A stretch of 32,000 bases of DNA from an uncultured archaeon (GTDB lineage Archaea; Asgardarchaeota; Thorarchaeia; Thorarchaeales; Thorarchaeaceae). Below, one piece after another: positions 5,424-22,351 of the stretch. Each line of letters opens with the position of its first letter. The stretch's first letter is position 1. Location of the stretch: NCBI GenBank assembly GCA_964648855.1, contig CAZYLT010000004.1:169532-201531 (forward strand), given 5' to 3'. A program made the translations under genes and the position numbers. The notes under the pieces were generated by a model, which worked only from the letters and a program-made list of their open reading frames with translations, was not told where the DNA came from and searched no databases.

Positions 5424-5498
5424 CAAATTCTTCTTATTGCCCAGATAGAAACTGATGGAATAGAAACCAAAATCAGTATCTATCCCTGGATAGATTCA

Positions 5499-6158
5499 TT
5501 ACCATATAGGCGAAGACGGAAAATCAGCGTCTTGCTTTTCGTATTTTCTTCGCATCTCTTTTTGCATTTTGTCAAACTCTTTTTGCTTAGATATATGAAT
5601 CAACGAATCCACGAACCCTATGGTCGTCTTGATGCCCCAGAAGTTGATATTCCTTTGTTTCCTATCTGCTTTCAAAGGACTTGAAATAATCCACTCCCCA
5701 TCCCTATGCACTACATCAACATACATCCATTCAAACCGTTTCTCTGTTCCTATGCGTCCAAGTATACTGGATACCAACCCAATTCCTACAGACGCGCCTT
5801 CTAAGTCGAGATCTTCGCTAATTTGACCTATTTTCTTTATTTTGTCAAGAAACATTCCACTACCGAGTTCTGTGTATATCTTGTTTTTCACATCGTGGCT
5901 GCGGAAGACACTCTTTTTCCCAAATAATTTAACCATAGGATGGTTTCTCGGAATAATTTCATGAACTACAAGCCAACAGGCATATGCCTTTGCAACCTCT
6001 TCTATTGCCAGATTCTTAAGCATCAATGCATGGGTCATCGACACATTTTGGGCAACAAGTGCTGCCTCTTTCACCAACGCTTTTGCATTCCTGAGGGACT
6101 CTATCATCGCCTCATGATACACTTCTCTTGGTGGCAATTTAGATGCCATTTGTAGCAC
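5499..6158 (-). CDS. AbiV-family abortive infection protein (HEPN-like)
   Basis: NAKALVKEAALV...LAIEEVAK...FRSHDVK matches the AbiV signature NAxxLxxxA...ExxxK...FxxHxxK. Start uncertain (ATG 6149 possible). Confidence 0.72.
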   Translation of the reverse strand: MLQMASKLPPREVYHEAMIESLRNAKALVKEAALVAQNVSMTHALMLKNLAIEEVAKAYACWLVVHEIIPRNHPMVKLFGKKSVFRSHDVKNKIYTELGSGMFLDKIKKIGQISEDLDLEGASVGIGLVSSILGRIGTEKRFEWMYVDVVHRDGEWIISSPLKADRKQRNINFWGIKTTIGFVDSLIHISKQKEFDKMQKEMRRKYEKQDADFPSSPIW

Positions 6159-6827
6159 CTATGCCATCTGAAGCAGAGCTCTCTCTTGCTCTTCAGGAAT
6201 CTCCTTGGCCTCGTCGGGGAAGTATCTCTTTTTGAGGAAATACTCCAATGTAGTTTCATCCATCTCATACAGAGCTGGGCGAGGCATCCAGACAATCAAA
6301 TCCTTCTTGTAGATGTATCCCTCTGCAATCTCGTCCTGGAACTGGAGAATCAGATCTAATGCCCTATCCACTGTCTTTCTGTTGACACCTGTCCGTCTGG
6401 CCAATTCTGCGATGGTCAGGTTGTCCTCTATCTGCAGCACCTTAAATAGCCTGTCCACTACCTCTTCGATTGAGGTTCTTCCCTCCGACTTGAACATCTC
6501 TCTTATTTCTGCTGTATCTGGCTTTTCATCACTCTCAGTGAAGAAGCGCTTCTCTATGTACCACTGACGCATCTCCTTTGGGAGTTTCATCTTATCCAGT
6601 CTGTCTTTGAGCCACACCATCTTTCCATAACCGCCCTCAAGCACTCTAATCTCGAATGCTGCGAACTGGTCCTGCTCTGTTATCAAGAAATTGACTGCCC
6701 GGTCAATCGCCCGCCAGTCAGTGCCACTCTTTTCTGCTATTTCCCGCAGCGAAATCGGGGAATTCGTCATCAAAACCTCCAGTGACCTCTCAATCGATTC
6801 CTCGAAAGTTGTCCGTCCTTTTGTCAT
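6159..6827 (-). CDS. Tandem-duplicated HTH DNA-binding protein
   Basis: Two homologous halves: GRTTFEESIERSLEVL...ISLREIAEKSGTDWRAIDRAV and GRTSIEEVVDRLFKVL...LTIAELARRTGVNRKTVDRAL. ATG 6827 preferred over the longer 6920 start. Confidence 0.75.
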   Translation of the reverse strand: MTKGRTTFEESIERSLEVLMTNSPISLREIAEKSGTDWRAIDRAVNFLITEQDQFAAFEIRVLEGGYGKMVWLKDRLDKMKLPKEMRQWYIEKRFFTESDEKPDTAEIREMFKSEGRTSIEEVVDRLFKVLQIEDNLTIAELARRTGVNRKTVDRALDLILQFQDEIAEGYIYKKDLIVWMPRPALYEMDETTLEYFLKKRYFPDEAKEIPEEQERALLQMA

Positions 6828-7090
6828 TACATCCACAATCCAATACACAAATACATCCAAATTCCTTCTTTTCACAATCCACCATATACTATACACGACA
6901 CATCTACAATTCCGTAACACATCATATTATACATTATATGACAACTATTATGCACAATAATCACGTATCATATACATTTAAATACTTTTGGCACACAAAA
7001 AAATATAAAATAACATTATAGTACTAAAAAAATACCCTAAAAGGGCAATTACTACGAATGATTTATAAGGATACTCTTCGCTAGCGAATT

Positions 7091-7393
7091 ATGCCTATCA
7101 AGAAAATCGACATCATAATCATGACTTGCATGTATGATGAAGATAGGATAGGCTCTCGCCATGGAAACATCGATAATATTCTCAAATTCTGTACTCCCAG
7201 GGAATATCGTGATCGATACCCCCTCGGAAAAATCAAGAAACGCATGCGAAAACTTGCCGGCCAAAACTATCTTATTCGGAAGACAGGTCGTTTTGAGGCA
7301 TACTCATTGAGCATGGATGGTGTAAGAGTTGCTGAGAGATGGAAAGAGGGATGGACAATTGACGAAATCAACAGAGGAAAAAGAAACATCTAG
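7091..7393 (+). CDS. Small basic winged-helix-like protein
   Basis: IKKRMRKLAGQNYLIRKTGRFEAYSLSMDG resembles a wHTH recognition helix plus wing (L...GYL...Y.LT..G). Confidence 0.55.
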   Translation: MPIKKIDIIIMTCMYDEDRIGSRHGNIDNILKFCTPREYRDRYPLGKIKKRMRKLAGQNYLIRKTGRFEAYSLSMDGVRVAERWKEGWTIDEINRGKRNI

Positions 7394-7931
7394 CAAACAA
7401 GAACCAGCGAATGCCCCCAAGGACACCAATCAATTCGATACTATGGAATTTGAGATGGCAGGTAATTCATTAAGAGCGCTGACAGTAATCTATGGTTTCT
7501 TCTTCGTATTTCTTTCCGCTATGGTTGCCGGATCTCCAACAATAAACTCCGTCTTGGACCCCAACAATTCATTTCTTTTCTATGTTTGTACCCTACTTCT
7601 GGCTATTGCTAATGCACTTATCGGGATAGAAATCTTCAGAATCATGATAATGATGAATATTTCATTTATCGGTGAATGGGGATTACGGTTGCTAATAGCA
7701 TCAGTTCCTAGTACGTTTGTTTTTGTTATTGGAATAACGACCCTGTCAGAAATTAGCATCTTTGATTTTGAATTCTATCCTGTAGGTAATTGGATTGCCA
7801 GTCTTTTGTTAGCCTTAATAATTCTATTAGTCGCATTCAAATTGAAGAAGGATCCGATAATCCAACAATCTACTGCAGACAAAAACGAGAGTGAAAAAGG
7901 TCGTCACAATCAAGAAGAGCAATCCAGTTAG
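7329..7931 (+). CDS. Hypothetical membrane protein (about 4 TM)
   Basis: Four hydrophobic segments; true start probably downstream of 7329. Confidence 0.65.
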   Translation: MLRDGKRDGQLTKSTEEKETSSKQEPANAPKDTNQFDTMEFEMAGNSLRALTVIYGFFFVFLSAMVAGSPTINSVLDPNNSFLFYVCTLLLAIANALIGIEIFRIMIMMNISFIGEWGLRLLIASVPSTFVFVIGITTLSEISIFDFEFYPVGNWIASLLLALIILLVAFKLKKDPIIQQSTADKNESEKGRHNQEEQSS

Positions 7932-8011
7932 TTTGAGGAGTGAGTTCTGAATGACGCACCTATGTATGGAGTATGTAAGATATATATCGCGGACAACTAA
8001 CCGCGAGGTGG

Positions 8012-9148
8012 GTGGCGAAATTGTCGTGGTATGAAGATGAAAACCCGAACCAAGTGTCTAGAGCCCATTTTGAGCTTGCCATAGATCTTGCAGAGAAATG
8101 CAAACCTGAATGGCCTGGCAAGATGGCTCCTAAGGTCGGAGCGGTTGTTATTAGAAAGGGCGAGATTATTGCTCAGGCTTACAGAAATCAGATTGGTAGT
8201 GGGGATCATGCGGAATATATTGCCCTTGAGCAAAGACGAGGTGACCGAGTTGATTTCAAAGGAACGGACTTGATAACAACTCTGGAACCGTGTACAGAAA
8301 AACGACATGGCAAAATGAAGAAACCCTGTGTTGATTGGGTTAGGTATCGTAGGATACGAAAAGTATGGATTGGCGTCTTGGATCGCAATCCGCGTATTCG
8401 AGGCAAGGCAGTGATGCGACTGCATGACTTAGGTATTTACGTGGGTTGGTTTCCTGATGACTTGGTGCCAAGAATACTAGCTCAGAATGAGGAATTCTTT
8501 GAGCATGCTAGGCGAATGACTCCTCAGCTGACAGCCGATGAGCTTGAAGCGCGCAGGAAGGAAGTGCAAGACCTCGCGCTTCATGAACTATCTGCTTATG
8601 AGCGGGATTTGAAAACTATTGATCTGCCACCCCAATTGAAGCAACTACCTATGGATTCAATTCAAAGTGCTATCAACGCTCTAGCAACAATGAACTTGCA
8701 TGATGTCGATGAGTGGGCTAAAGTGGGTTGGGATCTTCTTTCTGCTCACGTGTCTGCAAAACTACTTCTCGAAGGACACGACCAATTGCCGTTCCGAACA
8801 GAAATGGTTTCTGAAATTCTACAGGGCAATCTCAGTATGGATGAAATAGAATCTTCATCTGGAAGAAGCGATGGTAGGCCCCCGACAATTGCACCCGCTG
8901 GAAGAGCATTTACTACTGCAATGCAAGTAGATAGCACTAACACTCAATCGATAATTGGGAAGAGCGCTGTATTCCTGCTAATGGACGAGCCGATACGGGC
9001 TATGGAAACTCTCGAGATTGGCAGGAATTACATAGCCACACCCAACTCAAGGGTTGTCCATCTCTACAGAGATATTGGTGTTCAACTTCGCAAAATAGGC
9101 AATGTTAGATGGCGTCTTGCTTATGACCGGGCTAAAGACTTCGAGTAA
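8012..9148 (+). CDS. Zn-dependent cytidine/RibD-type deaminase domain fused to an uncharacterised helical C-terminal region
   Basis: PKVGAVVIR, HAE, TTLEPC-x9-PC and LDRNPRIRG motifs of the RibD-like deaminase fold. No RibD reductase domain. RBS GAGGTGG before GTG. Confidence 0.8.
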   Translation: MAKLSWYEDENPNQVSRAHFELAIDLAEKCKPEWPGKMAPKVGAVVIRKGEIIAQAYRNQIGSGDHAEYIALEQRRGDRVDFKGTDLITTLEPCTEKRHGKMKKPCVDWVRYRRIRKVWIGVLDRNPRIRGKAVMRLHDLGIYVGWFPDDLVPRILAQNEEFFEHARRMTPQLTADELEARRKEVQDLALHELSAYERDLKTIDLPPQLKQLPMDSIQSAINALATMNLHDVDEWAKVGWDLLSAHVSAKLLLEGHDQLPFRTEMVSEILQGNLSMDEIESSSGRSDGRPPTIAPAGRAFTTAMQVDSTNTQSIIGKSAVFLLMDEPIRAMETLEIGRNYIATPNSRVVHLYRDIGVQLRKIGNVRWRLAYDRAKDFE

Positions 9149-9199
9149 ACCCAACAAGCTGAAAAGAATTGCCATCAATAAATACTATATCTGCTTCGA

Positions 9200-9610
9200 T
9201 TATAGTCGAATGGGATTGGGACCAATCTCGCGAATCTTGTCTGCGAAGTCGTTGATCTCCTTCGCAAACTTCTCCCCTTCAGCCGCGCTCACGAACACCA
9301 TCTTCACCCGCTCCTTGTTCATGCCCAGTTTATCAACAAGTTCCCTGGCGAACCTGACCCGTCTCTCAGCTCCGAGATTGCCTGTCTTGTATGCGCAATC
9401 ACCGGGATGGCAACCAACAATCAGAACCCCATCTGCACCTTCCTGAAGCGCCTTCATAATGAAATTGATATCGAGCCTAGCAGTACAGGGCATCCGGATG
9501 ATCCGCGCGCTCACGTCGTACTGGATCTTCATCGTTCCGGCCAAGTCTGCAGCCGCATAACAGCACTGCATGCAGCCGAAGATGACGATGTTCATGTCTT
9601 TAGGGGGCAT
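9200..9610 (-). CDS. mvhD: Methyl-viologen-reducing hydrogenase delta subunit / hydrogenase iron-sulfur subunit (intact copy)
   Basis: IVIFGCMQCCYAAADLAG, RMPCTARLD, GADGVLIVGCHPGDC, VSAAEG and GPNPI motifs. RBS GAGG and a TATA-like element upstream. Confidence 0.93.
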   Translation of the reverse strand: MPPKDMNIVIFGCMQCCYAAADLAGTMKIQYDVSARIIRMPCTARLDINFIMKALQEGADGVLIVGCHPGDCAYKTGNLGAERRVRFARELVDKLGMNKERVKMVFVSAAEGEKFAKEINDFADKIREIGPNPIRL

Positions 9611-9744
9611 AGGTAATAGATAACCTCACTCTTGTGATTCTGGATTGATTTTCTTCCTCCATATAATCTTTCAGTCGTAGAATAAGCTTTGATTTGTGGC
9701 AAAGCCACTTATTTTTTCTAAATCCAAATATTTTGGATGCATGC

Positions 9745-9995
9745 ACCGACCCGAATCAGGTCTGGGTAGAGGGTGAGCGAACCCCCTCGGTGACCGTCAA
9801 CTCCCGTGTTCCACCCTGCTCGCGACCGCTGTCACCAGCGAACCCGGAGACCTCTCCCCGAGCCTGTACACGAGCTTTATCCGAGCAACCCTCGGATGGA
9901 GTTTCACTCCGCTGCACACTATTGCCATGACTATCAGTAGCCTTGCGGGCGTCGATGGTGGCAGACGGCTGTTCCACGGTTCTTCCCACGGCAGG
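9745..9995 (-). ncRNA. Putative omegaRNA/reRNA scaffold overlapping the tnpB 3' end
   Basis: Dense hairpins within the low-complexity tail codons: GAGGG/CCCTC (9769-9788), GGAG/CTCC (9846-9857), ATCCGAG/CTCGGAT (9879-9897), GGAGT/ACTCC (9898-9910) and a closed domain at 9920-9993. TnpB guide RNAs are known to overlap the gene 3' end. Boundaries approximate. Confidence 0.55.
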
Positions 9996-11531
9996 GTCGG
10001 TAGTGCTCACAAACTCTGCAAGCAGGGTCTGGTCATGGCACTCGGCCGCGGACCGCCCCCGTGAAGCTGATCTCTTCGAGGACGGTTCGGACTTCTCGTT
10101 AGAGCGTGTTCTCCTCCGAGCCTTCAAGCTTGCCTGTTTCTTCTCATTAGGAAACAACCAACGCTCTAGTCCGGTCTCATTCGTAAGTGAAGGAATGAGC
10201 TTGATGAGGCGCCGGGCGATGTTGATGGCGCCGTTCTTGTCGGCATTGGAGCGATAGCCACAGGTGGTACATATGAAGAGGGACTGCTTCGGCCTGACTC
10301 CCTTGGAACCACAGCGGTGGCAGATGATTGATGTCCAGGACTCAGGGACAGGAACGAAGTGCGAGTCCTTCCCATCCACCCTCCAACCCTCTTGGACAAG
10401 AGCGTGCTTGAGCCCCTCGCTGACTCGTGCAAAGGTCCAGCGAGCCACCTTCTTTCTGAAGGACTTGCTCTTGCCACTCTTTCTTCCTGCGCTACGGCGG
10501 ATGTTGGTGAGGCGACCAATGGCCACATAGAGGTCATACTTCTTGGAGAGCTCGAGGATATGGGTGGTGAGCTCTCGGACGAGCACACCATCAAAGTCAG
10601 TACTGATGTTAGCACGGCGGCTGCGAAGTTCCTTGAGGCGCTCCGCCACACCGTCGTACGGCCACCCTGCATTCTTCCGGTCACACATCTCTCGTTGTAG
10701 AGCGTCAACCATCTCATCGTACCGCTCTATGTGACTGATCTTTTCCGGTTGCGTGAAGTAGCGTACGTATCTCACCCGTTGTTCAGTCAGCACAACAGAA
10801 CAGACCGCCTTGTCAATACCGAGATCAATACCCAACACTGCTGGAGGCAGACCAGTCATGTCAACCACCTCCACCTCCACTCTTACAGCAAACACAACCC
10901 ACCATTTACGACGGGCGTCCTTGAAGAGCCTCAGGGATGTGACCTCACCCTCATCCAATCTGTTCAGATGATAGGAAGAGGGATTCAAAGGAATACGCAA
11001 TCTATCATGGGTCCAGCTATCCGTCTGTGCAGAGTCCAAGGAGTCCAACAGGTTCAGCCAATGCTTTGTTTCCTGTCCCCGTCTATATTCTAGCTTGAAT
11101 CTCCTGGCATATACATACCGGGGAAGCTTCCTTGCTCGATACCCCTGTGCCTTGAGCGGGGGCTGTCCTCCCAGCTCAAGATAGCTGTTCCACATGGCAG
11201 CCGCAACTTGCCTGCACTCCTGCAGCTCGTTGGTTGAGATGTTTGGGAATCTCTTCTTGAAGTCATGAGGAACAGACAGTCTTCTCTTAGCTGGGTCCTT
11301 GAACCGCTCCGCGGTGAGGGTCAACTTCTCCAGTGCTCCACCATTGATCCGTTTTCGTTTCTTACCGACAATGAGTTCTTTCTCGTGACGCGCAATGACC
11401 CCAAGAAACGCCCGGATGACTCGTGTATCCCGTCCGGTCAATCTCTCCAACCTAGACCTATCAGCATCACTCATGCAGTTCCATTTCACAGGAACTTTCA
11501 CACTGATGATTACAGTCTGGCTCTCGGGCAT
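9756..11531 (-). CDS. tnpB: TnpB/Cas12f-family RNA-guided endonuclease with rearranged RuvC-II and long C-terminal tail
   Basis: RuvC-I VLGIDLG, Zn ribbon CHRC...CTTC, RuvC-III NADKNGAINIA. The canonical RuvC-II position reads VAIGRL, and an alternative Glu occurs in VPESWTS. ATG 11531 (MPESQ) preferred, ORF open to 11627. No tnpA nearby. Confidence 0.88.
   Translation of the reverse strand: MPESQTVIISVKVPVKWNCMSDADRSRLERLTGRDTRVIRAFLGVIARHEKELIVGKKRKRINGGALEKLTLTAERFKDPAKRRLSVPHDFKKRFPNISTNELQECRQVAAAMWNSYLELGGQPPLKAQGYRARKLPRYVYARRFKLEYRRGQETKHWLNLLDSLDSAQTDSWTHDRLRIPLNPSSYHLNRLDEGEVTSLRLFKDARRKWWVVFAVRVEVEVVDMTGLPPAVLGIDLGIDKAVCSVVLTEQRVRYVRYFTQPEKISHIERYDEMVDALQREMCDRKNAGWPYDGVAERLKELRSRRANISTDFDGVLVRELTTHILELSKKYDLYVAIGRLTNIRRSAGRKSGKSKSFRKKVARWTFARVSEGLKHALVQEGWRVDGKDSHFVPVPESWTSIICHRCGSKGVRPKQSLFICTTCGYRSNADKNGAINIARRLIKLIPSLTNETGLERWLFPNEKKQASLKARRRTRSNEKSEPSSKRSASRGRSAAECHDQTLLAEFVSTTDPAVGRTVEQPSATIDARKATDSHGNSVQRSETPSEGCSDKARVQARGEVSGFAGDSGREQGGTRELTVTEGVRSPSTQT
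9920..9993 (+). repeat. 74-bp direct repeat, copy A (copy B at 21642-21715)
   Basis: TATTGCCATGACTATCAGTAGCCTTGCGGGCGTCGATGGTGGCAGACGGCTGTTCCACGGTTCTTCCCACGGCA; 73/74 identical to copy B. Confidence 0.95.
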
Positions 11532-11544
11532 GTGCATCACTTGA

Positions 11545-11655
11545 CAATTTAAACTTCCGACCTGTCTTGTGTCAGAAGGGAGTTCACTCAGCTCTCTATG
11601 CAAGAGATTGAATGATAATCTCCACACATTCTATAGTATCAGGCAATTTAAACTT
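11545..11655 (-). promoter_or_regulatory. Two identical TATA-like boxes upstream of tnpB
   Basis: CAATTTAAACTT at 11545-11556 and 11644-11655 (AAGTTTAAATTG on the minus strand, BRE/TATA-like). Confidence 0.45.
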
Positions 11656-11784
11656 ATGAAGACTGTAGATTTATGGACACTCAATATTCAATTCTAAGAC
11701 CTCATATGCCTTATTTTGGTGGATAAAGCATTGGTCGTAAAGCCCGAGATAGTATATATAAATAACCAACACAAACGGTAGAAT

Positions 11785-14700
11785 ATGGCTCATTTTGGGT
11801 CTCCCAAGCAGCCAAACAAGGTCCTCATCACTGCCTTCAAGCGTGGGATGGCAGGGACATTGGCTCTCGCACGGGACCGTGCCACGGGAGTTGTCCGACC
11901 ATTGTACTATGGGGATAACCGTGTGAAGGGCATGGCGAAGATCTGGGATGAGGCCAAGACGGCCTATCGCGAAACCCATGACCGGGACAGGCAGCGCAGG
12001 TCGGCCTCCTATCGACAGAGCTTGACCCCAGACCAGCTTGAGGAACTGGACAGGAGGGTCCTCCCTGATAGCAGACTTCTCCTGATGGCGGAGAACAACA
12101 TCCGGCGCAACTTCTACCGCATTATGTTGAAGACAGCCGTCAAATATGGCAACAAAGAGACCAAACGTGTCAAGCGTGGCGAGGGGCCACAGGGATACCT
12201 CAACCTGCTCTGGGACTATGCAGGAAGTAGAATCCGTGATGTCTGCAAGGCCCGGTACTTCTTTCCGCCGCCCACAGAGCTCAAGCTCGTAGATGGGTCT
12301 GAGGGGGTAGGGTATCCCTCCCTTGGAGGACAACCTGCATACTTCCTGAACCACGATAACCTCCCCGAACTGGACTTTGGAGACATGATACGAAGCCACC
12401 TGGTCGAGCTAGCTCGACAGTGCATGAAGTACAATGTGCCTCTCAGGCCAGCAAAACGGTACATCGATCAGCTACTAAACAGGCTTCTTCCGTTTCTGGA
12501 CTATGTCTATACTGGAAGAAAAACCGGGCGGTCCAACTTTGTCCGAGAGGGATTAGAAGAACTACGAGATGTGGTGGATAGAATCAGTATACTCTATGGC
12601 ATGCGAAACGGCCGAGCTCCCTCTATCACCACCATGGTTGCAGTCGATACAGAGGTGACATTGTCGGACGCTGATGTGCCTATGGTTGAAGAGTATCCAG
12701 ATTGCGTCACTGAACCTCAGCTCGAGAACATGCCTCATATACCCGTAGAGAATGTCATAACCACTGATACCTCAATCGAAGAAGATATTGAGTATCCAAC
12801 CACTCCGAACTTTTTTACAACCATTGTTGGAAGAGCGGAGGACAAGGGTGTTGATGAGTGGAGCGATGCTCTGGATACGCTCAAGCAATTGCTGGATGAG
12901 GGCATCCTAGACAAAGAGGACGCCGCACAGATTCTGAAGCAGGCAAAAGAGGAGAGCAGAAGAATCGGCAGTGCATTCCATGACTTTGTATCAAAGGGCT
13001 TTCCCAGTCCCTTCGTGATGAGTGCAGTGGTCCATCATGGAGATGAGATGGTACGGGATAGGTCCGGTCTCCTGATAGTATCCGAGTTAGGCGTTGCAGG
13101 AGGACAGGGACGAGTTGACCTTGCCCTCTTCAGACGAAAGCTCTTGCCAAGTGTGGATGAGGCCCCGCCACAAATCGTCTATGAACCCTGCATGGTTGTT
13201 GAGATAAAGACGAAGAGCGCCTTTGAACTCGATATCTATGGGGTGAGGTCCAAGAGTGAGAAGGAGAAGAATGTTGTCAGCGAATTCCTACTGGAGAGAA
13301 GGAGGCTCACTGACGAAGAGTGGATGGACATACGGGGAAGTATCTCTCCCGAGAGTGTGAAACAGATTGAGCTCTACAGTGAAGCCATACTGAATGAGTA
13401 CCAACGAGTGGCATGGATAGATTCCAAGCCGCCAAACGAACTAATCAAAGCGGTTGTTTCGGTCGATTCAACAGAAACGTGGAATGAAGCTCGTGACGCA
13501 CTGCATGCCGTGATTATCGAAGGCTACGAGATGGCCATGAATAATGGAATTTCCACAGGCGATGTTCTTCAGGTCAGCGAGAATGGAATCCCGCTGAGAT
13601 TGGTCATGCATATGGTATCAGATAGCTGTTCAGCCACTGAAGTGGAGCCACCTGCTAAGAGAGAAGAAAACAATCCGTTCTGTAAACATCAGGATGATGG
13701 ATTGGAATTCATTATGTATCTCTCCGTGTCCGGTCGTGGCTCCCCCTCAGAGTCTGCTGCAACAATAGCAGAGAGATGGCACGGTCTGAAGTATCTCTAC
13801 GATATGGCGCATTACAAGCACAGGGATATCATATGGTTCGACATGAATGGCGAAATCGCAGACCCGCTGCTCGGAAAGCACAGGCTGAGGTTGGCGTTCC
13901 ATGATGCATCCGTCCAGCGCTTCTTCAAGAGACGCGTCAAGGTTGTGGACATGTCCTTCACTATTGCTGAGTACTTGCATGGCAGGCAAACGAGCCGAGT
14001 AATTAGAAAATTGATTAAAGATAATGTGACTAATGCCAAGAAACCAATTGTGGTGGTAAGTGGTTGGAACTCATTGTGGCGAAGAACTGGGCCATATCAG
14101 AATCCCTTGTTGGGCGCGATACTCCTGCTCTTCCTGTCGGAGGTTTCTAAAGGTGGAACGATTCTGTGGTTCAATCGTCCGGTTCCTCTCTCTGATAATA
14201 GCTCCGTGTACCAGACAAAATGCGTGGCACCGTTCTATACCAATTCTCAATGGGAGGGTTTTATCGATAGAATCGTCTGGAATCTCCCTCTGCCTCCACA
14301 GAGGTCAAGGTCATTTACGCCTGCGGATGATTGTATCAGAGTGTCTATTATGGAAGCACCAGGTGAAACGGTCATCTCGGAGCGAATCCATATCCTCCCT
14401 CTTGAGGGATGGGGAGAAACCTTCCGGTCAGAGCCCCAAACCCCCTACGTTTCGATGATGTATTCTAAGGGAGCAGGTTTCGCAGGCTCAATGCAGACCT
14501 TAGCACAGTCTGTTGATTATGAAGATGTGTATGATCTCTTACCGCACCTCCAAGATTCTGCGATTACAGATAGCATCCCTGAAAAAGCCAGGTATGTAGT
14601 TGAAAAAGCACATGTATCGTCACGGATTCAAGATATGCACGAGTCCATCAATCTAATCAATTTCCGACCCTATCAATTTCAAGAGCGACTGGAGAGAAAC

Positions 14701-17274
14701 AAGCGGTACAAGAAGCTGCTGCCGATAGATCAGATTACGCAGAAGCGCGAATACCGAACCATGACACTTGGTGTGGAGGAACCCCAGAGAAATACAAGGC
14801 CTCCGTCTGAAGACATGCTGATAGCATGTGATGTTGATGATATTGACATAGCCCTATCCGAGGTACGTGGCCTGAAAAAGGCCATCTCATTCCTCTTAAA
14901 CCAAGAATCTCCTCCAAGCCACATTGTGAGATTGTGTGAAGAACTACTGGATATCATTGAGCCAACAGATGCTACTCAATCTAGTCAGAAGGTCATGAAC
15001 AGACTGCGCCTAGTTAGACAGACTCTTGAGAATGACATATCCACGCAAAATAGTTGGACGCAGCTAGAACCGTATCGGATGCAAGCGCATCGTCAACTGA
15101 AACCGCATATCCGAGCTCACATCGAGCAGCTGTCCCAAAGACATCCTGATATCATGCTCATCACGGGAAATCATCTCTTTTTGATGTTGCATGCTGCACT
15201 CAATACGATTCCTTCCAGCATCCATCTACGAACTCTGGATCTTCTGTGGCAATACCTTGTTCCTTGGCATTATACAAGACTTGGACTCAGTCCAGAATAC
15301 AGGTATGGAACACATGCTGGCCGGTCAGTATTAGACCGTCATGTGCTCTTTGAGAGACTGAAGTCGCGAGCCTTAGCATTGAATGCTCTGATTGCCGAAG
15401 ACATCTCTCTAAGGAGTGTTCGGATGGGGCAGGTGATAATCCGAAGAACAGGATTAGAGCAGGAGCCGTTGGCGACATGGCTGATCTTCCAGAGAACCAT
15501 GGGAGGGACTGAGATGAACGCGGCGCTCATCACACCCTATGCTTTAGACCCAGGCGAGGCGCCATATGAGCTTCTCAAGGGCCTTATTTCGGATGCGCCC
15601 TTCTGGAGTGAGAGTGACATCAGCAGACTAGCAGACTCTGCACGTAGTGAAAAGAAGGATATCAGAGTGCCGCTGATGATTGCCAACCAGAAGGATATGC
15701 AGCTTCTCTTTGTACGGCACCAAGATAGTGATGTCTGGATGCCAGTAGGACGAATCGAGTATACGAGTCATGCATTCCAGAGTGTGACATTGATTAGAAC
15801 GCTGCAGATACGTGCAGAGGAACAGGCAGTTCCGGTTTCTACGAACGCAGTTCCTAAATCCCTCTTGGACACTCAAGACTTGGTTGATGTTGCCCTTCTT
15901 GTCATTCGTCGAGGTCTGGGTGAACCAGTCAATGCGAAATGTCACATCTCGTTGGACCATGAGAGAGGAAGCTATCATATTTTCTTTGAGGTAGCAGAGG
16001 AGGATGATAATGAATCGGAAGCTTTGGCATTGACCATCAAGAGCACCATTGAGTTGGTTGCACTACTCAGGAAGCCAGACTATCAGTGTGAGCCCGTGGT
16101 CATTGACGGGAAACGGCTCATCTGGAACCGATTTCAGGACATCACCTATCATGAAGATGTGCAACTCATCCGTCCATGGGTGGAGAGAAGGAATCCATTT
16201 CCACACCTGGCGATGGAGTTGCCACCGAGTGCTGAGGACCTCCTCGCTGCCAAACAGGACTTCAATATCAGAGTGGAGCCCCATCACGACCCGTGGGTGT
16301 GCCCCCTTCGACATGTTTCCAAGGAGGACATAGAGAGACAGCAGCGCCTTGCTCCAGTGGCAAATATGCACTATCTCTTCCGTTATGAGATTCCTGTCGG
16401 AACACCGAAACGCCTCCTTGATGAAACAGGACTAAGACATGGTTCCTGCTGGGGTATCCGAATCCATACACCTCACTCGCTTCCGATGGAGCTTCAGGAC
16501 CTGATGTCAGTTCGTTTCACCGCTGCTCAGCTCGCGACACTCGTGCGGTCGAGTGAGATTGTCTACTGGTCGAACGAGCAACAGGAGTGGATTGTTCACT
16601 CGATGGATCTCGTGTGGAGAAACCATGTCATCTCGGAAGCCCAGGAGGCCTGGCATCTCAGACGAGTCATTGAGGAGTACCTCGGGCAAGAACTGGAACT
16701 AGTGAAACCGGGAACCTATCTGCAGAAACAGGAACGATGGTGCCCCTACTTCATCATTGAGCAAGAGAGAGTAGTAGTGGGTCTGGAGCGGGGTGCAACA
16801 AAGGAGAAACGAGAGCGGGTGCTTAGAGAGAGGAATGTTGCTCTCCGAGCAAGAGAAGAGGTCGAGAACATCCTCAGTCAGGGCATGACTACGCTTCTTG
16901 ATGAGCAGGGCATCACTCCCGACAGAAGACTCCAGAGTGATATTAGAAACGAGATAGTATTCATACTTGAGGAGGCAGTGACATCAGGAGAGGACATGAA
17001 ATTGACCTACTCAGGAGCAATGATCCGCAGAGATGAGGTCGGAGGTAGGCGGGTTTATGTCATCTTTGAATCTCCTTATGATGAATACTATCTACCAGTT
17101 ACTCCTCATCTTCATGATATTGCAAGAATTGAACATCTTATACCCTCAGAGGTTCGAAATGATATCAAATGTCAACTCGAAACCCATCCCTTTCGTAAGT
17201 CGGATATAGAAGAAGCAGTTGCAGGAGTGATGGGTTTACTTAGGGACGAAGGACTGTCGCACTCCAAGGAATGA
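11785..17274 (+). CDS. Very large (1829 aa) multidomain protein with a PD-(D/E)XK (RecB/Cas4-like) nuclease domain and a probable degenerate P-loop ATPase domain
   Basis: Uninterrupted 5.5-kb ORF. SE434...GRVD445...VVE473IK...Q527IELY nuclease motifs. Then IMYLSVSGRGSPSES, IIWFDMNGE and PIVVVSG, resembling decayed HerA/VirB4-like motifs. TATA (TATATATAAATA) about 25 bp upstream suggests a leaderless transcript. Confidence 0.8.
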   Translation: MAHFGSPKQPNKVLITAFKRGMAGTLALARDRATGVVRPLYYGDNRVKGMAKIWDEAKTAYRETHDRDRQRRSASYRQSLTPDQLEELDRRVLPDSRLLLMAENNIRRNFYRIMLKTAVKYGNKETKRVKRGEGPQGYLNLLWDYAGSRIRDVCKARYFFPPPTELKLVDGSEGVGYPSLGGQPAYFLNHDNLPELDFGDMIRSHLVELARQCMKYNVPLRPAKRYIDQLLNRLLPFLDYVYTGRKTGRSNFVREGLEELRDVVDRISILYGMRNGRAPSITTMVAVDTEVTLSDADVPMVEEYPDCVTEPQLENMPHIPVENVITTDTSIEEDIEYPTTPNFFTTIVGRAEDKGVDEWSDALDTLKQLLDEGILDKEDAAQILKQAKEESRRIGSAFHDFVSKGFPSPFVMSAVVHHGDEMVRDRSGLLIVSELGVAGGQGRVDLALFRRKLLPSVDEAPPQIVYEPCMVVEIKTKSAFELDIYGVRSKSEKEKNVVSEFLLERRRLTDEEWMDIRGSISPESVKQIELYSEAILNEYQRVAWIDSKPPNELIKAVVSVDSTETWNEARDALHAVIIEGYEMAMNNGISTGDVLQVSENGIPLRLVMHMVSDSCSATEVEPPAKREENNPFCKHQDDGLEFIMYLSVSGRGSPSESAATIAERWHGLKYLYDMAHYKHRDIIWFDMNGEIADPLLGKHRLRLAFHDASVQRFFKRRVKVVDMSFTIAEYLHGRQTSRVIRKLIKDNVTNAKKPIVVVSGWNSLWRRTGPYQNPLLGAILLLFLSEVSKGGTILWFNRPVPLSDNSSVYQTKCVAPFYTNSQWEGFIDRIVWNLPLPPQRSRSFTPADDCIRVSIMEAPGETVISERIHILPLEGWGETFRSEPQTPYVSMMYSKGAGFAGSMQTLAQSVDYEDVYDLLPHLQDSAITDSIPEKARYVVEKAHVSSRIQDMHESINLINFRPYQFQERLERNKRYKKLLPIDQITQKREYRTMTLGVEEPQRNTRPPSEDMLIACDVDDIDIALSEVRGLKKAISFLLNQESPPSHIVRLCEELLDIIEPTDATQSSQKVMNRLRLVRQTLENDISTQNSWTQLEPYRMQAHRQLKPHIRAHIEQLSQRHPDIMLITGNHLFLMLHAALNTIPSSIHLRTLDLLWQYLVPWHYTRLGLSPEYRYGTHAGRSVLDRHVLFERLKSRALALNALIAEDISLRSVRMGQVIIRRTGLEQEPLATWLIFQRTMGGTEMNAALITPYALDPGEAPYELLKGLISDAPFWSESDISRLADSARSEKKDIRVPLMIANQKDMQLLFVRHQDSDVWMPVGRIEYTSHAFQSVTLIRTLQIRAEEQAVPVSTNAVPKSLLDTQDLVDVALLVIRRGLGEPVNAKCHISLDHERGSYHIFFEVAEEDDNESEALALTIKSTIELVALLRKPDYQCEPVVIDGKRLIWNRFQDITYHEDVQLIRPWVERRNPFPHLAMELPPSAEDLLAAKQDFNIRVEPHHDPWVCPLRHVSKEDIERQQRLAPVANMHYLFRYEIPVGTPKRLLDETGLRHGSCWGIRIHTPHSLPMELQDLMSVRFTAAQLATLVRSSEIVYWSNEQQEWIVHSMDLVWRNHVISEAQEAWHLRRVIEEYLGQELELVKPGTYLQKQERWCPYFIIEQERVVVGLERGATKEKRERVLRERNVALRAREEVENILSQGMTTLLDEQGITPDRRLQSDIRNEIVFILEEAVTSGEDMKLTYSGAMIRRDEVGGRRVYVIFESPYDEYYLPVTPHLHDIARIEHLIPSEVRNDIKCQLETHPFRKSDIEEAVAGVMGLLRDEGLSHSKE

Positions 17275-17391
17275 GTATAACCAAAGCCGGAATCATTGAT
17301 AATACATTTATCGCAAAGCGAGATATTTTTCAATAATCATTGAAGATAAAAAATAGCGAAGAGAACCATAGCAATCAGGAGCTATCTTGCT

Positions 17392-18209
17392 TTGCATATT
17401 CCCATTATCTGTCCTAAAAACTACTACAGTTGCAGTTTTGAGATAGAATATAATCCACAGAAGATATTCGTCTTGATGCCTTTCGGGGAAGAGCAAGCCC
17501 CACAGAGTCTATTCACAGACGTCCTGAAGGAACTTCCAGGATGGCAAGTAGAACGTGCAGATACAGATCTAAGCAAACCAGAAATTTGGTGCAAGATTTG
17601 TGCGAATATTCAAGAATCCAGAGCTATTGTTGCCGACCTACCGGGCAGAATCCGAATGTTTTTCTTGAATTAGGGCTCGCCTGGGGTTTAGGTAGGCCGT
17701 TTATTTTGCTAGCTCAGGAAACGAGAAATCTGCCCTTTGATACTAGAACCTTTCATGTTATTACTTATGATAGAGCTGAAGGGGATGTACTAAATCCCGA
17801 TGAACTAGCAACGGATATTCTTCAATCACTAGATAAAATACCACAAATTCCAATGACAGAAGAAATCAAAGCGAGAAGTCCTGAAGAGTTTCTCTACCAG
17901 AGGATACCGAATGCAAAAAATAGGTCTGTACATCTATGGAAGAAATCCGGAAATCATTTTGTTTTGAGTGATATAGAGCTATCAGCATATCGAGTAGCTT
18001 TAGCCCTTCTGCGAACATACCCTTCGCCTGCAATGGTTAAGTCAATTGCAAAAGAAACGAGGCTTTCCAGACCCAGAGTTTCTCAAATATTGCATGGTAC
18101 ATATAGTGACACTGACAAATTCTTTGAAAAAAAGCAGTCTAAATGGACTCTTTCTGATGAAGGGATTTATTGGACAATCAACGAAGTGGTTCGCAAATCT
18201 ATCTTATGA
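17392..18209 (+). pseudogene. Nucleoside 2-deoxyribosyltransferase-like (TIR-like) domain + C-terminal wHTH, split by a single-base frameshift near 17640
   Basis: Frame 1 gives KIFVLMPF...VERAD...IQESRAIVADL. The other frame continues TGQNPNVFLELGLAWGLGRPFILL. Joined they give the ADLTGxNPNVFxELG signature, with one base missing at GACCTACCGGG. Confidence 0.8.
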
Positions 18210-18253
18210 TTGAAACATCTTCAGACATTAATGCTAAATGGGTAAGCATGCAA

Positions 18254-18769
18254 TTACTCGACAGTGATATAGGTGGGTATCACGGAGCTCTTCAACCACT
18301 CAATTCCCGCCTTCGTCAATTGGTATCCTCCCTTTAGTTCTTTGAAATAGTCTTTTGTACCTTTAACTTGTCCTCTGAGATTGGCGTTAGCAGTTGGCTG
18401 CTTCACGTCGACGTTGTTAACAACTTCTGCCTCTTCAACGGCTTTTGGATATTCTTTCAAGAGAGATAGAGCAATTTTGTGGGAGTTATCAGTTACTCTT
18501 TCGGATAGCTCGTTCTCATCCTCTGACCACAATTTGCTAGCTTCTCTCTGTAACTCCAATATCTCTAGATGCTGTTCTATTTCATCATCGAGCGACTGGG
18601 TTAAACTCCACAGCTCATGAATCAATCTATAGGCTGTTACAAATTGCCTTTTTTCCTGATCCATTCTAATGTTGCTCACCGATATTCTTGCACCATCTCG
18701 GTCTTTATTTATGGTTATACTGAAGTTGCCAACATCCTCAATGTCGATAGTTTCACTATGGCTATCCAA
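18254..18769 (-). CDS. Hypothetical protein with C-terminal wHTH-like domain (paralog family)
   Basis: KIALSLLKEYP...DYFKELKGGYQLTKAGIEW, shared with neighbouring genes. Confidence 0.7.
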   Translation of the reverse strand: MDSHSETIDIEDVGNFSITINKDRDGARISVSNIRMDQEKRQFVTAYRLIHELWSLTQSLDDEIEQHLEILELQREASKLWSEDENELSERVTDNSHKIALSLLKEYPKAVEEAEVVNNVDVKQPTANANLRGQVKGTKDYFKELKGGYQLTKAGIEWLKSSVIPTYITVE

Positions 18770-18786
18770 TTTTAAATCACTCCTAA

Positions 18787-19236
18787 CTACAGCTTCGCCA
18801 GTTTATCCTCAAATACAGATGCCGCCCATATTACTCCGTCAAGCGATATGCTTACTCCATTATTCTTGTCTAATGACAAATACCTGCTTGAATCATGTTT
18901 CTTTGCAGTTACATAAACCTTGTACGAGTTGAATGGGATCTTTAGTTTCTTCTCGATGGAATTCTTTGTCAACGTGACTGGGTAAGAAGCAGCTGCAGAA
19001 AGACAGACTGTTTTCATTTGATTTGAAAGGCTTCCTTTGGGAATGAATGCCCCCTCATCTGTATTATTACACAGCCTCCGAAGTAGCTTTATTATATCCG
19101 TGGCTCGGGCGATTCTCTCCGCATCCATAAACGCCCGAGTCACCTCTTCTGATGTTTGATTTCCAAATTCGACTGAAAATGCAGTTTCTTCATCTGTTTT
19201 TCCTGTTATCCTTTTTCTGATAGAATTCTCACTCAT
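18787..19236 (-). CDS. Hypothetical protein with C-terminal wHTH-like domain (paralog family)
   Basis: TVCLSAAASYP...RYLSLDKNNGVSISLDGVIW. RBS GAGGGG before ATG 19236 (preferred to 19344). Confidence 0.65.
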   Translation of the reverse strand: MSENSIRKRITGKTDEETAFSVEFGNQTSEEVTRAFMDAERIARATDIIKLLRRLCNNTDEGAFIPKGSLSNQMKTVCLSAAASYPVTLTKNSIEKKLKIPFNSYKVYVTAKKHDSSRYLSLDKNNGVSISLDGVIWAASVFEDKLAKL

Positions 19237-19622
19237 GTTATATTTCCCCCTCAATATTGAGAGTAGTCTAGCTATCTGGTGCATAATCTGTATCTGCCAG
19301 CTAGCAAAGCATCCCACAGGCTGCATAATAAGGAATAGACCCAACTAAAATGCTTATCGCATGCATCCCACAACACTAAATGGACATATCTAGGTGCACG
19401 ATGGTAATGTATCTGAATTTGAAATATCTGAAAAGCGAAAAGGGAATACCATCACCATAAATCTCTGTGGATCGGAATGTATACTATGAGTTCCTGATTA
19501 ACTATCTACGGTTGAAAATGAATATCAGCTAACATAAGTTTCAGAAATATGCATTCCGAATGATGATGTTCCGCTGTTCGAAATGCATTCTAATCCACTC
19601 ATAAAAATTATATTTGATGGGC

Positions 19623-20123
19623 TTAGGAATCTTTAGATTCTATTTTTTCAATGATTTCCGGCACAGTTTCCTTCAAAGCAAACTCCAAGCCCTTCTTCGT
19701 GAATTTGTATCTTCCTTTGACACAACTCTCAAAATAATCTGAATACTTCTCATACTTCTTCCTTGACCCAGTAAAAACTCTTGAGGGGCGTCCAGTATTA
19801 ATCTTCCATTCATGCGCTATTGCCGACGACCCCATGCACCTATTGTAATTGCGCAATAACGAGATTGTAACCATATGATAGTCATTTTTCAAAATATCTT
19901 TGATATCTCTTTCTTGAAATTGTAATGCGTCACTAATTTTGTCCAGTTCTGTTGAAATCCTATCCAGCATTTCAACAACTTCACATGCAATACTTAGTCG
20001 ACGATATGCATTCTTAATGTCTTCATCTGGCTTTGCAGTAATCCTCACTTTAGTTTTTCCAGCATACTTCTCTAATATCATGCTCTCAAATTTATCCTCA
20101 ATCAACAAGCAATCACGCTCCAT
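19623..20123 (-). CDS. Hypothetical protein with C-terminal wHTH-like domain (paralog family)
   Basis: MVTISLLRNYN...DYFESCVKGRYKFTKKGLEF. Confidence 0.7.
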   Translation of the reverse strand: MERDCLLIEDKFESMILEKYAGKTKVRITAKPDEDIKNAYRRLSIACEVVEMLDRISTELDKISDALQFQERDIKDILKNDYHMVTISLLRNYNRCMGSSAIAHEWKINTGRPSRVFTGSRKKYEKYSDYFESCVKGRYKFTKKGLEFALKETVPEIIEKIESKDS

Positions 20124-20243
20124 GCTTCAATTGTTCTATTATTTGTTTCAACATGTAAAATTTTTCTGAATGAGATAGGGAGTCAGAATGGTCCTCTTCT
20201 TCCAGAGGTTTCTTGCTATTCAATCGCAACACGGGCAATAGTG

Positions 20244-21056
20244 TTATGAGATATTCCTCCATGTACTGAATAATGCAATAACAGCTTTATTTACATCGGC
20301 TCTAAGATTCAACAACTCTCCCTTTGTTCCATGATCTATAATCGAATGTGCTCTTGCATTACCCTCCTCTCGAAGTTTCTCTATCACCCTCATGATTTTG
20401 TTGTCTAAACCAAATGGTTTAAAATCCTCAATACTATCACGCAGGTTCTTAATTAGTTGTGAAAGATTACGAAAACGCTGTTCCGATTTTATAAAAAACA
20501 GGTCGAGGTTAGCCATACCGTAATTAGCTCTCAAGAGGGAAACAATCAAATTCTCAATGAGCTTGCGCACAAGAACGATTGTTCCAGAATATGCACCAAT
20601 ATCGAAAGTATCGTTAATCTCACCTATCAGTTGTTCGTATTCTGGATACCCCGCCATATCCAACTCAAGATAATTTAATCTTGGAGTTTTTCTCGCCTCT
20701 CTGTCCTTCTCCCTTGTTTCGAGTTCTTCTTTTGTATACATGTCTTTGAAGCTATACACTTGCGCTTCATTATAGGCATCTTCAAGCCTTGCCGCTTGAG
20801 TCGAGTTCATTTCCAGAATCCATGCCTTTGAATCACACTTAGGACAAGTAGCCTGTTCCTGTATCGGTATTTCCACGGTTTCCCCCTCAGGAGTTCTATA
20901 ATACATTCTATCATAGATGTTCTTCCGGCTGAATCTCTTAGGTAGTGTTGCAACCAACAATCCATCCCTTTGACGGATGTACTTGTGTCTATAATCGCAT
21001 TCCAAATTCGGACAATCCACTTCTACCGTGACAGAATCGTTCAATACTTTCACCAT
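20244..21056 (-). CDS. Zn-ribbon + HEPN-like (DUF4145-type) protein
   Basis: N-terminal CPNLEC and CPKC. C-terminal GAYSGTIVLVRKLIENL...LREEGNARAH (Rx3Nx2AH HEPN-type motif). Confidence 0.7.
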   Translation of the reverse strand: MVKVLNDSVTVEVDCPNLECDYRHKYIRQRDGLLVATLPKRFSRKNIYDRMYYRTPEGETVEIPIQEQATCPKCDSKAWILEMNSTQAARLEDAYNEAQVYSFKDMYTKEELETREKDREARKTPRLNYLELDMAGYPEYEQLIGEINDTFDIGAYSGTIVLVRKLIENLIVSLLRANYGMANLDLFFIKSEQRFRNLSQLIKNLRDSIEDFKPFGLDNKIMRVIEKLREEGNARAHSIIDHGTKGELLNLRADVNKAVIALFSTWRNIS

Positions 21057-21148
21057 GTTTACTTGAAGATGATAATAAGCCTCTCCTATAAACTAATGGA
21101 GATACAACATCAAGGAACCAAGCCCATTTCCTTTTGCGCCCTGTAGCT

Positions 21149-21583
21149 TTATGGGACTAATTCTCCAACAGCAGATATTGCCCAATCTAGGGCTTCATAT
21201 TTCAGAGCAACACCCCGTTGGTCCTCTTCTATGTGCGGCTCCACATCCAAATCACTATTCGTGAGATAATTTCGAAGCGATCCCATGCTTACAGATGCGG
21301 AAAGAGTTAGCCCCTCTCTAGTTATTCTATCTGGATACTGATATAGGAGTGACAGAGCCAACCTCTCCTTTACTGATCCAACGCTCTCAGGAAAACGTAA
21401 CAATCGCTGTTCAGAATCCGTCGAAATATAATCGAATTCCACCAAATCACCAATTAGATATTTTAGTCTGCCAATCGTAATTTGCTCCATTACATCCGCC
21501 CAAGAGTCACCTGCTGCATGAAGAGTGGCATCGTCTATTTTGATTTTCATAGTGTATTTCCAATTCTCAGTTCTTTCTTCCAT
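21149..21583 (-). CDS. Hypothetical protein with C-terminal wHTH-like domain (paralog family)
   Basis: RLALSLLYQYP...GVALKYEALDW; RBS GGTG upstream. Confidence 0.65.
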   Translation of the reverse strand: MEERTENWKYTMKIKIDDATLHAAGDSWADVMEQITIGRLKYLIGDLVEFDYISTDSEQRLLRFPESVGSVKERLALSLLYQYPDRITREGLTLSASVSMGSLRNYLTNSDLDVEPHIEEDQRGVALKYEALDWAISAVGELVP

Positions 21584-21641
21584 TTTGATTCACCAGCTAT
21601 TCCAGTTTGAATTTTGATAAATTCTCGGGCATGCTACACCT

Positions 21642-21715
21642 TATTGCCATGACTATCAGTAGCCTTTCGGGCGTCGATGGTGGCAGACGGCTGTTCCACG
21701 GTTCTTCCCACGGCA
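21642..21715 (+). repeat. 74-bp direct repeat, copy B (copy of tnpB 3' region)
   Basis: 73/74 identical to 9920-9993; intergenic. Confidence 0.95.
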
Positions 21716-21739
21716 TGAGCTTCATCACACTCTCTACCC

Positions 21740-22075
21740 TTACTTCTCAGTCTTAGCTAGCAGGTCTAGCTGAAGTGCATTTGCAGTCACAATGAAGCTG
21801 CCGGTCCACTCAGGAAAGTCCGGTTCATTTCCTTGGTCCAGCATCTCTCTCCATGCCTCATCGGTTAGACGGTTGCTTACTGGTTGAGTGAACTCATAAT
21901 ATGAGAAAGTGCCTCCCCGCACCAGCTGTCCATTGATTGGAACTGCCACAATGATGATATGTGGGTTTCCTACAGCCTTTTCTAGAACCTCCATGGTGTT
22001 GGGGTCTGTGTGCACATCCGCCACGAGTGACATATACTTGTCAATACCAGAGGTGATCAATGGATCTTCGGGCAA
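21740..22075 (-). pseudogene. C-terminal fragment of a DUF3160-family protein
   Basis: LVADVHTDPN...VLE.AVG...RGGTFSYYEFTQP...RLTDEAWREML is the recognisable C-terminus of the large DUF3160 proteins. No upstream portion is present. Confidence 0.7.
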
Positions 22076-22351
22076 GGTCCCAATCTATTCAAGGGTGTGC
22101 AGTGCGGATTCGATTGTTTGAATATCAGTTTCATTGATGGCTGCCCAGCCAACTCCTTGATTGCAATGGACCTGATATCGAGCAAAAACGAGTTAATGAC
22201 TCTCCATCCTGCCATGAGTTTCAGTATTAACACACATTCGTGCAAAATGCAACAAGTTCAATGGAATAGTGCTTGGTAAAACAGCTCCTCATGTGTGCGA
22301 AAGATATACTCGCTGCTCTCGGGTGCGATTCGTACAAGAATTGAGGCGTAC

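Follow-up and report, generated by a model that had tools for sequence, protein, structure and literature searches.

The gene studied here lies in a 32,000-nucleotide stretch of DNA (hereafter the window) from an uncultured Thorarchaeaceae archaeon (assembly GCA_964648855.1, contig CAZYLT010000004.1, forward-strand positions 169,532 to 201,531), where it stands head-to-head with a gene for TnpB, an RNA-guided nuclease. Its giant product of 1829 residues is well preserved and belongs to the "Asgard Cas1" (aCas1) family, in which a Cas1-type domain is fused with a nuclease of RecB type and with a RecA-like domain that is dead, and it is obligately paired with TnpB. aCas1 reportedly stems from Makarova et al. 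2020, CRISPR J. As to its role, we infer that the giant acts, on balance probably, as the integrase or end-processing factor of a TnpB-guided, site-specific mobile element.

A first-pass annotation, made from the letters of the window, had described the giant as an unknown protein carrying a series of nuclease- and ATPase-like motifs. The open reading frame is real: frame translation gives 1829 codons without internal stop, and all of the quoted motifs are found in it (E434, D445, E473-x-K475, Q527xxxY531, SGRGSPSES at 649-657, IIWFDMNGE at 682-690 and PIVVVSG at 754-760). Fifty-five full-length homologs share 30-44% identity with the giant, those with a named source being hypothetical proteins of Thorarchaeota, and comparison with the ortholog in a congeneric genome (G076) gives a ratio of nonsynonymous to synonymous substitution (dN/dS) of 0.17 for residues 1-626 and of 0.22 for residues 634-1829. 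Because of these homologs and ratios the gene is judged to be real and functional, its substitution pattern indicating that it is kept by purifying selection. Within the archaeal family to which the window belongs, 46 of 76 genomes carry members of the aCas1 family; so do 3 of 11 genomes from one other Asgard family, and the 214 further Asgard genomes sampled have none, the related genomes in these counts not being independent samples. The window genome (G000) itself holds four copies of the giant that have diverged to 25-33% identity and two more that start at contig ends; across the family the copies are many, diverged and often located at contig ends. The whole protein matched no model in Pfam, NCBIfam or PADLOC (5027 models), profiles of the whole giant, its N-terminal domain and its nuclease region retrieved nothing credible from the sequences of the PDB, and the ESM Atlas gave no usable match for the whole giant or for residues 990-1829.

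The domain map relies on predicted structures throughout. The giant was modelled with AlphaFold2 (AF2) as two halves, using input alignments of 43-44 relatives from genomes, and the N-terminal and C-terminal models reached predicted local distance difference test (pLDDT) scores of 84.8 and 80.4, respectively; residue conservation was counted over 44 diverse relatives. Fold searches with Foldseek and VIA-align were run on the two half-models, and the nuclease and C-terminal domains are hence under-tested. Residues 1 to ~255 of the predicted model align with Cas1 8flj_A (VIA-align Z 13.0, root-mean-square deviation (rmsd) 3.7, 179 residues aligned), and eight further Cas1 or casposase matches to the N-terminus reach Z 9.2-12.2 (4w8k, 4n06 at Z 12.2, and the casposase 6opm at Z 10.8). 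Among the top 50 VIA-align rows there are nine Cas1/casposase entries and no other helical family. Alignment by hhalign with 17 canonical Thorarchaeial Cas1 proteins is weak (E 0.014, probability 3%); it pairs E103, N140, H190, D197 and D200 of the giant with the conserved E, N, H, D and E of Cas1, and these five residues are invariant or more than 90% conserved among the relatives. The Pfam Cas1 family (PF01867) did not match the whole giant above threshold, a scan of 43 N-terminal domains with it yielded one match at E 0.43, and Pfam scans of each member's N-terminal or nuclease domain gave scattered weak matches only. Judged from the predicted fold, then, the N-terminus is a Cas1-like catalytic domain with a conserved E-H-D-D active site. 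The basic N-terminal region of ~280 residues that the first-pass annotation had noted is indeed present, but it can be assigned as this helical catalytic domain. The model begins at that domain, which aligns to Cas1 from residue ~90 onward, and the N-terminal beta-strand domain of Cas1 is not present. Compared with Cas1 and the casposases, the giant therefore shares the fold of the catalytic helical domain and the conserved E, H, D and D/E, and it differs in having no N-terminal beta domain, no CRISPR array in the window, no family-B polymerase among the neighbouring open reading frames scanned and no Pfam Cas_Cas1 match, as well as in the fusion of its Cas1-like domain to ~1500 further residues.

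The RecB/Cas4-like nuclease motifs proposed for the next domain are borne out by conservation, as E434, D445, K475, Q527 and Y531 are invariant in 44/44 relatives, each of which has either E or D at position 473. They map to predicted strands 429-437, 442-454 and 463-477 and to helix 522-542, and it is on these motifs and the predicted strand order that the assignment as a nuclease rests. The motifs E, hD, (D/E)xK and QxxxY thus stand in the same order, on predicted strands plus helix, as in the RecB, AddB and Cas4 nucleases, from which the giant differs by an insert of ~50 residues between ExK and QxxxY. Against the libraries of hidden Markov models (HMMs) the nuclease region found no match, and with Cas4 only the ExK strand is paired by hhalign (E 0.019, weak). 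Residues 340-635 hold no conserved cysteine; unlike Cas4, the giant lacks the four iron-sulfur cysteines, which the canonical Thorarchaeial Cas4 keeps (C17, C156, C159 and C165).

The third domain had been read as a degenerate HerA-like ATPase. The degeneracy stands, since the Walker A lysine is absent, but the fold belongs to the RecA/RAD51/KaiC/DnaB class. The HerA/FtsK/VirB4 ATPases are not among the top 50 VIA-align rows listed, which are taken up by RecA-class and Cas1 matches, and their absence from that list does not speak against them. Foldseek retrieves RAD51 paralogs and KaiC (E 2.6e-6), and VIA-align retrieves XRCC2 in BCDX2 (Z 12.6, rmsd 3.8, 193 residues aligned), Elp456 (Z 12.3) and Twinkle and KaiC (both ~Z 12). 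The P-loop positions 650-657 are occupied by a variable S/G/T/P, the Walker A pattern GxxxxGK[ST] does not occur, and no lysine is conserved there across the family. On the other hand, D686, at the end of the IIWFD strand, is conserved in 42/44 relatives, and in the predicted model this strand is the likelier Walker B, rather than PIVVVSG as first proposed. Hydrolysis of ATP by this domain is unlikely because the Walker A lysine is missing in every member of the family. The likeness to RecA-fold pseudo-ATPases (RAD51 paralogs, Elp4/5/6 and KaiC-like archaeal proteins) comprises both the score of Z ~12 and the Walker-B-like aspartate, and it is the absence of the Walker A lysine in every member that sets the giant family apart from RecA-fold proteins.

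The C-terminal half has no counterpart among solved structures at Foldseek E <= 0.001, and its best VIA-align score is Z 6.0; RNase H/actin-like and Cas1-like rows for this half (Z ~5) were rejected as no better than background. Two motifs in it, HDPWxCP (residues 1501-1507, window 16285-16305) and HGxCW (residues 1552-1556, 16438-16452), are invariant among the closer homologs, and judging by their sequence they could build a zinc site.

Table 1. Features of the tnpB-giant locus and its surroundings (window coordinates).
Feature	Position	Strand	Basis
Putative matching site within mvhD, antisense of ~codons 10-14, overlapping the palindrome where truncated mvhD copies begin	9567..9582	+	sequence match
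Putative 16-nt guide or attachment-site copy (TGCATGCATCCAAAAT)	9730..9745	-	directly past scaffold end
Predicted omegaRNA scaffold region, overlapping the tnpB tail; GTTCGCTCA at 9774-9782, end GGGTCGG at 9746-9752	9746..10190	-	motif position, conserved block
tnpB partner of clade A; has RuvC-I D and RuvC-III NADxN, with G replacing the canonical RuvC-II E	9756..11627	-	library matches, motif reading
83-nt tnpB-tail segment, direct repeat at 21633-21715 (95% identical)	9911..9993		second copy at far edge of the island, absent in G076
Divergent intergenic region, A+T-rich TATA-like boxes for both genes	11532..11784		read from sequence
Giant gene, aCas1 family member, 1829 aa	11785..17274	+	open frame, full-length homologs, dN/dS
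Predicted Cas1-like alpha-helical catalytic domain, residues 1-290; candidate site E103, H190, D197, D200	11785..12654	+	AF2, VIA-align, hhalign
Acidic linker, residues 293-338, predicted disordered, poorly conserved	12661..12798	+	pLDDT <50; occupancy 0.33 in 301-330 block
Helical region and predicted RecB-type PD-(D/E)XK nuclease, residues 340-635; E434, D445, E473, K475, Q527, Y531	12802..13689	+	motifs, predicted strand order
Predicted RecA/RAD51/KaiC-like domain without Walker A lysine, residues 636-875	13690..14409	+	Foldseek, VIA-align, alignment
C-terminal half, residues 886-1829, folded, conserved	14440..17271	+	pLDDT 80.4; dN/dS 0.22
Low-GC island beside the giant 3' end, outside the conserved module	17275..21780		absent in G076

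The identification of the neighbour as TnpB holds: the window protein (P0002) matches PF07282 at E 2e-11, and it scores 85 bits with NF040570, under the cut-off of 100. The shared divergent region of ~250 bp described for the two genes is equally correct if tnpB starts at the ATG where its relatives begin to align, and in 38 loci the partner genes are separated by stop-to-stop gaps of 33-238 bp. The higher GC content claimed for the pair is also found, with 0.46-0.52 over 11.5-17 kb versus 0.36-0.40 over 17.5-21 kb. Within the intergenic region, a 12-nt direct repeat (CAATTTAAACTT) occurs at 11545-11556 and 11644-11655, and an exact copy of a second motif discussed below, GTTCACTCA, lies between both of its copies on the + strand (11582-11590).

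The proposal that the two genes form a module is upheld by a survey of gene neighbourhoods, in which a TnpB-family gene faces the giant's relative head-to-head wherever the locus can be assessed. Forty giant loci were fetched from other genomes, one of them not assessable as its contig ends, and the arrangement is seen in the remaining 39/39; it recurs in 2/2 assessable loci of the second Asgard family, and within the window genome 4/4 assessable paralogs of the giant face a diverged tnpB (45-47% identical). Chance adjacency is ruled out by this universal linkage, and the giant and TnpB genes are one conserved module. The partner is not always of the same kind: in 21 of the 40 fetched loci it is a tnpB like that of the window, and in the rest a TnpB-family gene of 710-766 residues with the canonical D-E-D site. 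The tree of the giants requires at least 6-7 switches between these two TnpB clades (A, that of the window, and B), so that the partner has been replaced repeatedly, yet always by a TnpB. The dependence is one-way, the giant always occurring with TnpB and not the reverse, because three of five related tnpB genes checked beside the gene mvhD have no giant upstream. Three mvhD-adjacent TnpBs that are 45-70% identical to P0002 (L124-L126, in G061:C24, G008:C3 and G075:C10) face unrelated genes of 365-479 residues.

The same gene, mvhD, is the candidate target of the window's TnpB. In at least 15 genomes the orthologous mvhD is immediately preceded by a P0002-like tnpB in the same orientation; most tnpBs at this site are 60-70% identical to P0002, and those elsewhere 45-50%. 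Scaffold-end remnants without tnpB occur at mvhD in several further genomes, and at 21 other fetched mvhD loci, some of them remnant loci, the stretch obtained upstream (<= ~3 kb) contains no tnpB. Since the giants found at mvhD fall in different clades of the giant tree, the choice of site goes with TnpB and its RNA and not with the giant.

The guide-RNA (omegaRNA) scaffold would overlap the tail of tnpB. GTTCACTCA stands 466-488 nt past the RuvC-III codons in 12/20 clade-A tails; the window has it with one mismatch, as GTTCGCTCA, on the - strand, and 11 other clade-A loci have it exactly, at the matching offset. The scaffold also holds a conserved block, GGTGGAACACRGRAGT, and ends with the consensus AGGTCRG. 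The bases flanking GTTCACTCA (window 9760-9800; tails L017-L056) vary by locus and look mutually complementary, which suggests, at the level of sequence, that they would pair into a hairpin whose loop is the motif rather than serve as a guide. Directly past the scaffold end, 16 nt (TGCATGCAKCCRAA) are the antisense of mvhD codons 10-14, with 12-13 of 16 positions matching the mvhD of the same locus. In another genome (G021), both the post-scaffold segment and the resident mvhD have TGGTTGCA, replacing TGCATGCA. Moreover, truncated mvhD copies in the neighbouring cassette array start inside the matching site, their homology ending at 9572. At other locations (C21 and C28 in the window genome, and L053) the flank past the scaffold is antisense to the 3' end of a tRNA. 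In five tails (L036, L037, L042, L088 and L092) the scaffold is followed by two successive units, each consisting of an AGGTCGG-like motif and 40-60 nt; of the two in L092, the proximal one fits the resident mvhD variant and the distal one the common sequence. By their sequence, such double units could be ends that serial insertions have left behind, or else a guide array of two units.

In the model that we favour, the tnpB-giant module would form the core of a mobile element that is site-specific. The insertion site, in this case a short palindrome within the 5' portion of mvhD, would be defined or defended by TnpB and its guide RNA, and the giant would perform the DNA chemistry, the Cas1-like site carrying out strand transfer and the nuclease trimming the ends; the RecA-like and C-terminal parts may serve as a DNA-binding or oligomerising scaffold. 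Element ends compatible with such a unit are seen in L019, where a perfect 22-bp direct repeat brackets exactly tnpB and the giant, and in L033, where the pair is bracketed by a duplicated host-gene 3' end (68 nt). In most loci no flanking repeats are present within the fetched DNA, the 83-nt repeat of the window encloses a later island, and no inverted repeats bracket the pair in the window. No match to PF00239 (Resolvase), PF01797 (Y1 transposase) or PF00589 (phage integrase) was found anywhere in the window genome, which is 94.6% complete and which still has cassette arrays and several tRNA-adjacent elements. The first-pass suggestion that the giant might supply a missing mobilisation function is plausible in view of its intact Cas1-type site and of the absence of these three families; it is weakened by the IS607 serine transposase that sister lineages carry, and the island that was to be mobilised is a later addition.

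Several observations weigh against a role as integrase. The aCas1 family is known from computation alone, and the homology to Cas1 consists of predicted structure and a weak profile alignment, HMM searches being empty; the N-terminal beta domain of Cas1 is lacking, and no Cas2 was noted, though no search was aimed at Cas2. Clear element ends are found in few loci only, TnpB lives beside mvhD without the giant in three of the five cases tested, and a serine transposase gene or its remnant adjoins the giant 3' end in 5/18 clade-B loci. In addition, the window copy shows no sign of recent movement: tnpB and the giant occupy the same place in G076 with a DNA identity of 87-88%, so that, as far as sequence comparison can tell, the pair has been in place since before both species of the genus split.

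The observations on the transposase and on the static copy are the main assets of the strongest alternative, which we consider possible and distinctly less probable: the giant would be a conserved accessory of IS607-derived TnpB elements that are moved by the serine transposase TnpA, lost in the lineage of the window. The element would then be immobile or helped in trans, and the giant would resect or pair DNA after a TnpB cut so that the element is copied back, as a homing or repair helper. In L023, L027, L049, L050 and L033, the giant 3' end is met by a convergent tnpA of IS607 type or by what remains of one, and therefore the giant need not be the transposase there; a RecB-type nuclease with a RecA-like fold fits recombinational repair, TnpB persists at mvhD without the giant, and the window copy is static within the genus. 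However, tnpA was found in 0/25 clade-A loci, and the window genome has no PF00239 match; most of the tnpA copies that were found are truncated or interrupted, in loci where the giant is intact. Nor does the conserved Cas1-type active site have an obvious part to play in a repair helper, and the RecA-like domain lacks its Walker A lysine.

Unlikely, in turn, is that the module is a resident machine for RNA-guided gene capture or guide acquisition, in which TnpB and its RNA address the mvhD palindrome and the Cas1-like giant inserts DNA, the inserts building a cassette array behind mvhD or new guide segments being placed by the scaffold as in a primitive CRISPR adaptation. An equally doubtful formulation makes codons 10-14 of mvhD an integron-like, RNA-addressed capture site, where each cassette leaves a stranded copy of the last 123 codons or the giant writes new guide segments. 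Such a machine would account for the post-scaffold match to mvhD codons 10-14, for the truncated mvhD copies that begin within that site, for the variant shared by the segment and the resident mvhD of G021, and for the tails with two successive units of scaffold end plus segment. The lack of the Resolvase, Y1 and phage-integrase families in the window genome is also in its favour. Furthermore, congeners differ in cassette content: the cassette at 5.4-9.2 kb (window 5423-9200, with AbiV-like, HTH and deaminase genes), flanked on one side by a truncated mvhD copy and on the other by the intact gene, is absent in G076, and cassette content at mvhD therefore varies within the genus. Arrays are present at 4 of 6-7 mvhD loci with tnpB and giant versus 0/3 with a solo tnpB, but the numbers are small and come from related genomes, and arrays also occur where a tnpB remnant or no tnpB was seen (G016, G019 and G047). 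Most members of the family occupy other sites, and the match could be the plain attachment-site copy of an ordinary integrative element.

An immobile defence system, in which invading DNA would be recognised by TnpB with its RNA and degraded by the giant nuclease, is very improbable, for although two nucleases under one divergent promoter region and defence-type genes nearby (e.g., AbiV) would suit it, the giant matches none of the PADLOC models, the guide-like segments match host genes (mvhD, tRNA 3' ends) and not foreign DNA, the window holds no array, and the many diverged copies, often at contig ends, are distributed as those of mobile elements.

Among known systems, the locus agrees with the aCas1-associated TnpBs, for which two Asgard-linked groups, Cas1H-Asgard-1 and -2, have been described (Altae-Tran et al. 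2023, PMC10691335). In those loci, aCas1 was suggested as the transposase, a variable stretch followed by GTTCACTCA was noted downstream of tnpB, and repeats were said to flank the locus in some cases (PMC10691335). The Asgard host, the position of TnpB beside a much-diverged Cas1 homolog, the two TnpB groups and the presence of GTTCACTCA are the same here, and there is no difference in kind. The pairing that the first-pass annotation took for a possibly undescribed system has thus been catalogued, with the motif at the expected place; the aCas1-TnpB family was already recorded computationally and the present one is not a new system. What is added to that description is the domain map of the giant, the repeated swaps of TnpB type and the one-way dependence, together with tnpA in some lineages, the mvhD-directed segment and the static, selected state of the window copy. 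Two related classes were considered and rejected: a CRISPR-associated Cas1, as no CRISPR array was found in the window, and a casposon, as there are no inverted repeats and the Pfam scan of the neighbouring open reading frames revealed no family-B polymerase domain. As in IS607 and IS200-IS605 TnpB elements and in CRISPR-associated transposons, an RNA-guided relative of TnpB/Cas12 is coupled to a DNA-insertion enzyme, and the guide-like segment equals the sequence of the element end and matches conserved host genes. Unlike them, the lineage of the window has no serine or Y1 transposase and no Tn7-type TnsB/TnsC, the candidate insertion enzyme being Cas1-like.

Of the two halves of type V CRISPR systems, the one that integrates spacers presumably descends from Cas1 and the one that cuts under RNA guidance from TnpB. 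A strictly conserved natural pairing of the two outside CRISPR thus offers a direct handle on the origin of such systems, and the pair is possibly a compact tool for RNA-directed DNA insertion. Were the capture or guide-writing reading true, the module would represent a surviving transitional form between TnpB transposons and CRISPR adaptation. The locus provides a clean, selected and intact copy, whose domains are fully mapped and whose catalytic residues are named, and a candidate target, the mvhD palindrome; the occupied, remnant and empty mvhD sites, along with TnpBs with and without the giant, form a natural comparison set. That aCas1 is the transposase should not be presumed, because some lineages keep a serine transposase.

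The low-GC island that adjoins the giant does not belong to the module. In G076, ~330 nt past the end of the giant, there follows a homolog of window 21776-22193, and the island is thus a later addition, that genome being without it; neither the other loci nor the rest of the window genome contain relatives of its genes. The stretch at 17.3-21.8 kb was accordingly rejected as a module part, being missing from the congener and made of unique genes. The two genomes also differ in how far neighbouring genes have diverged: synonymous divergence is 0.39-0.50 for the giant and 2.15 for the adjacent mvhD (window 9200-9610), the latter over 136 codons only. Cassette insertions that replaced parts of mvhD, or a later exchange of the element, are possible explanations for this gap.

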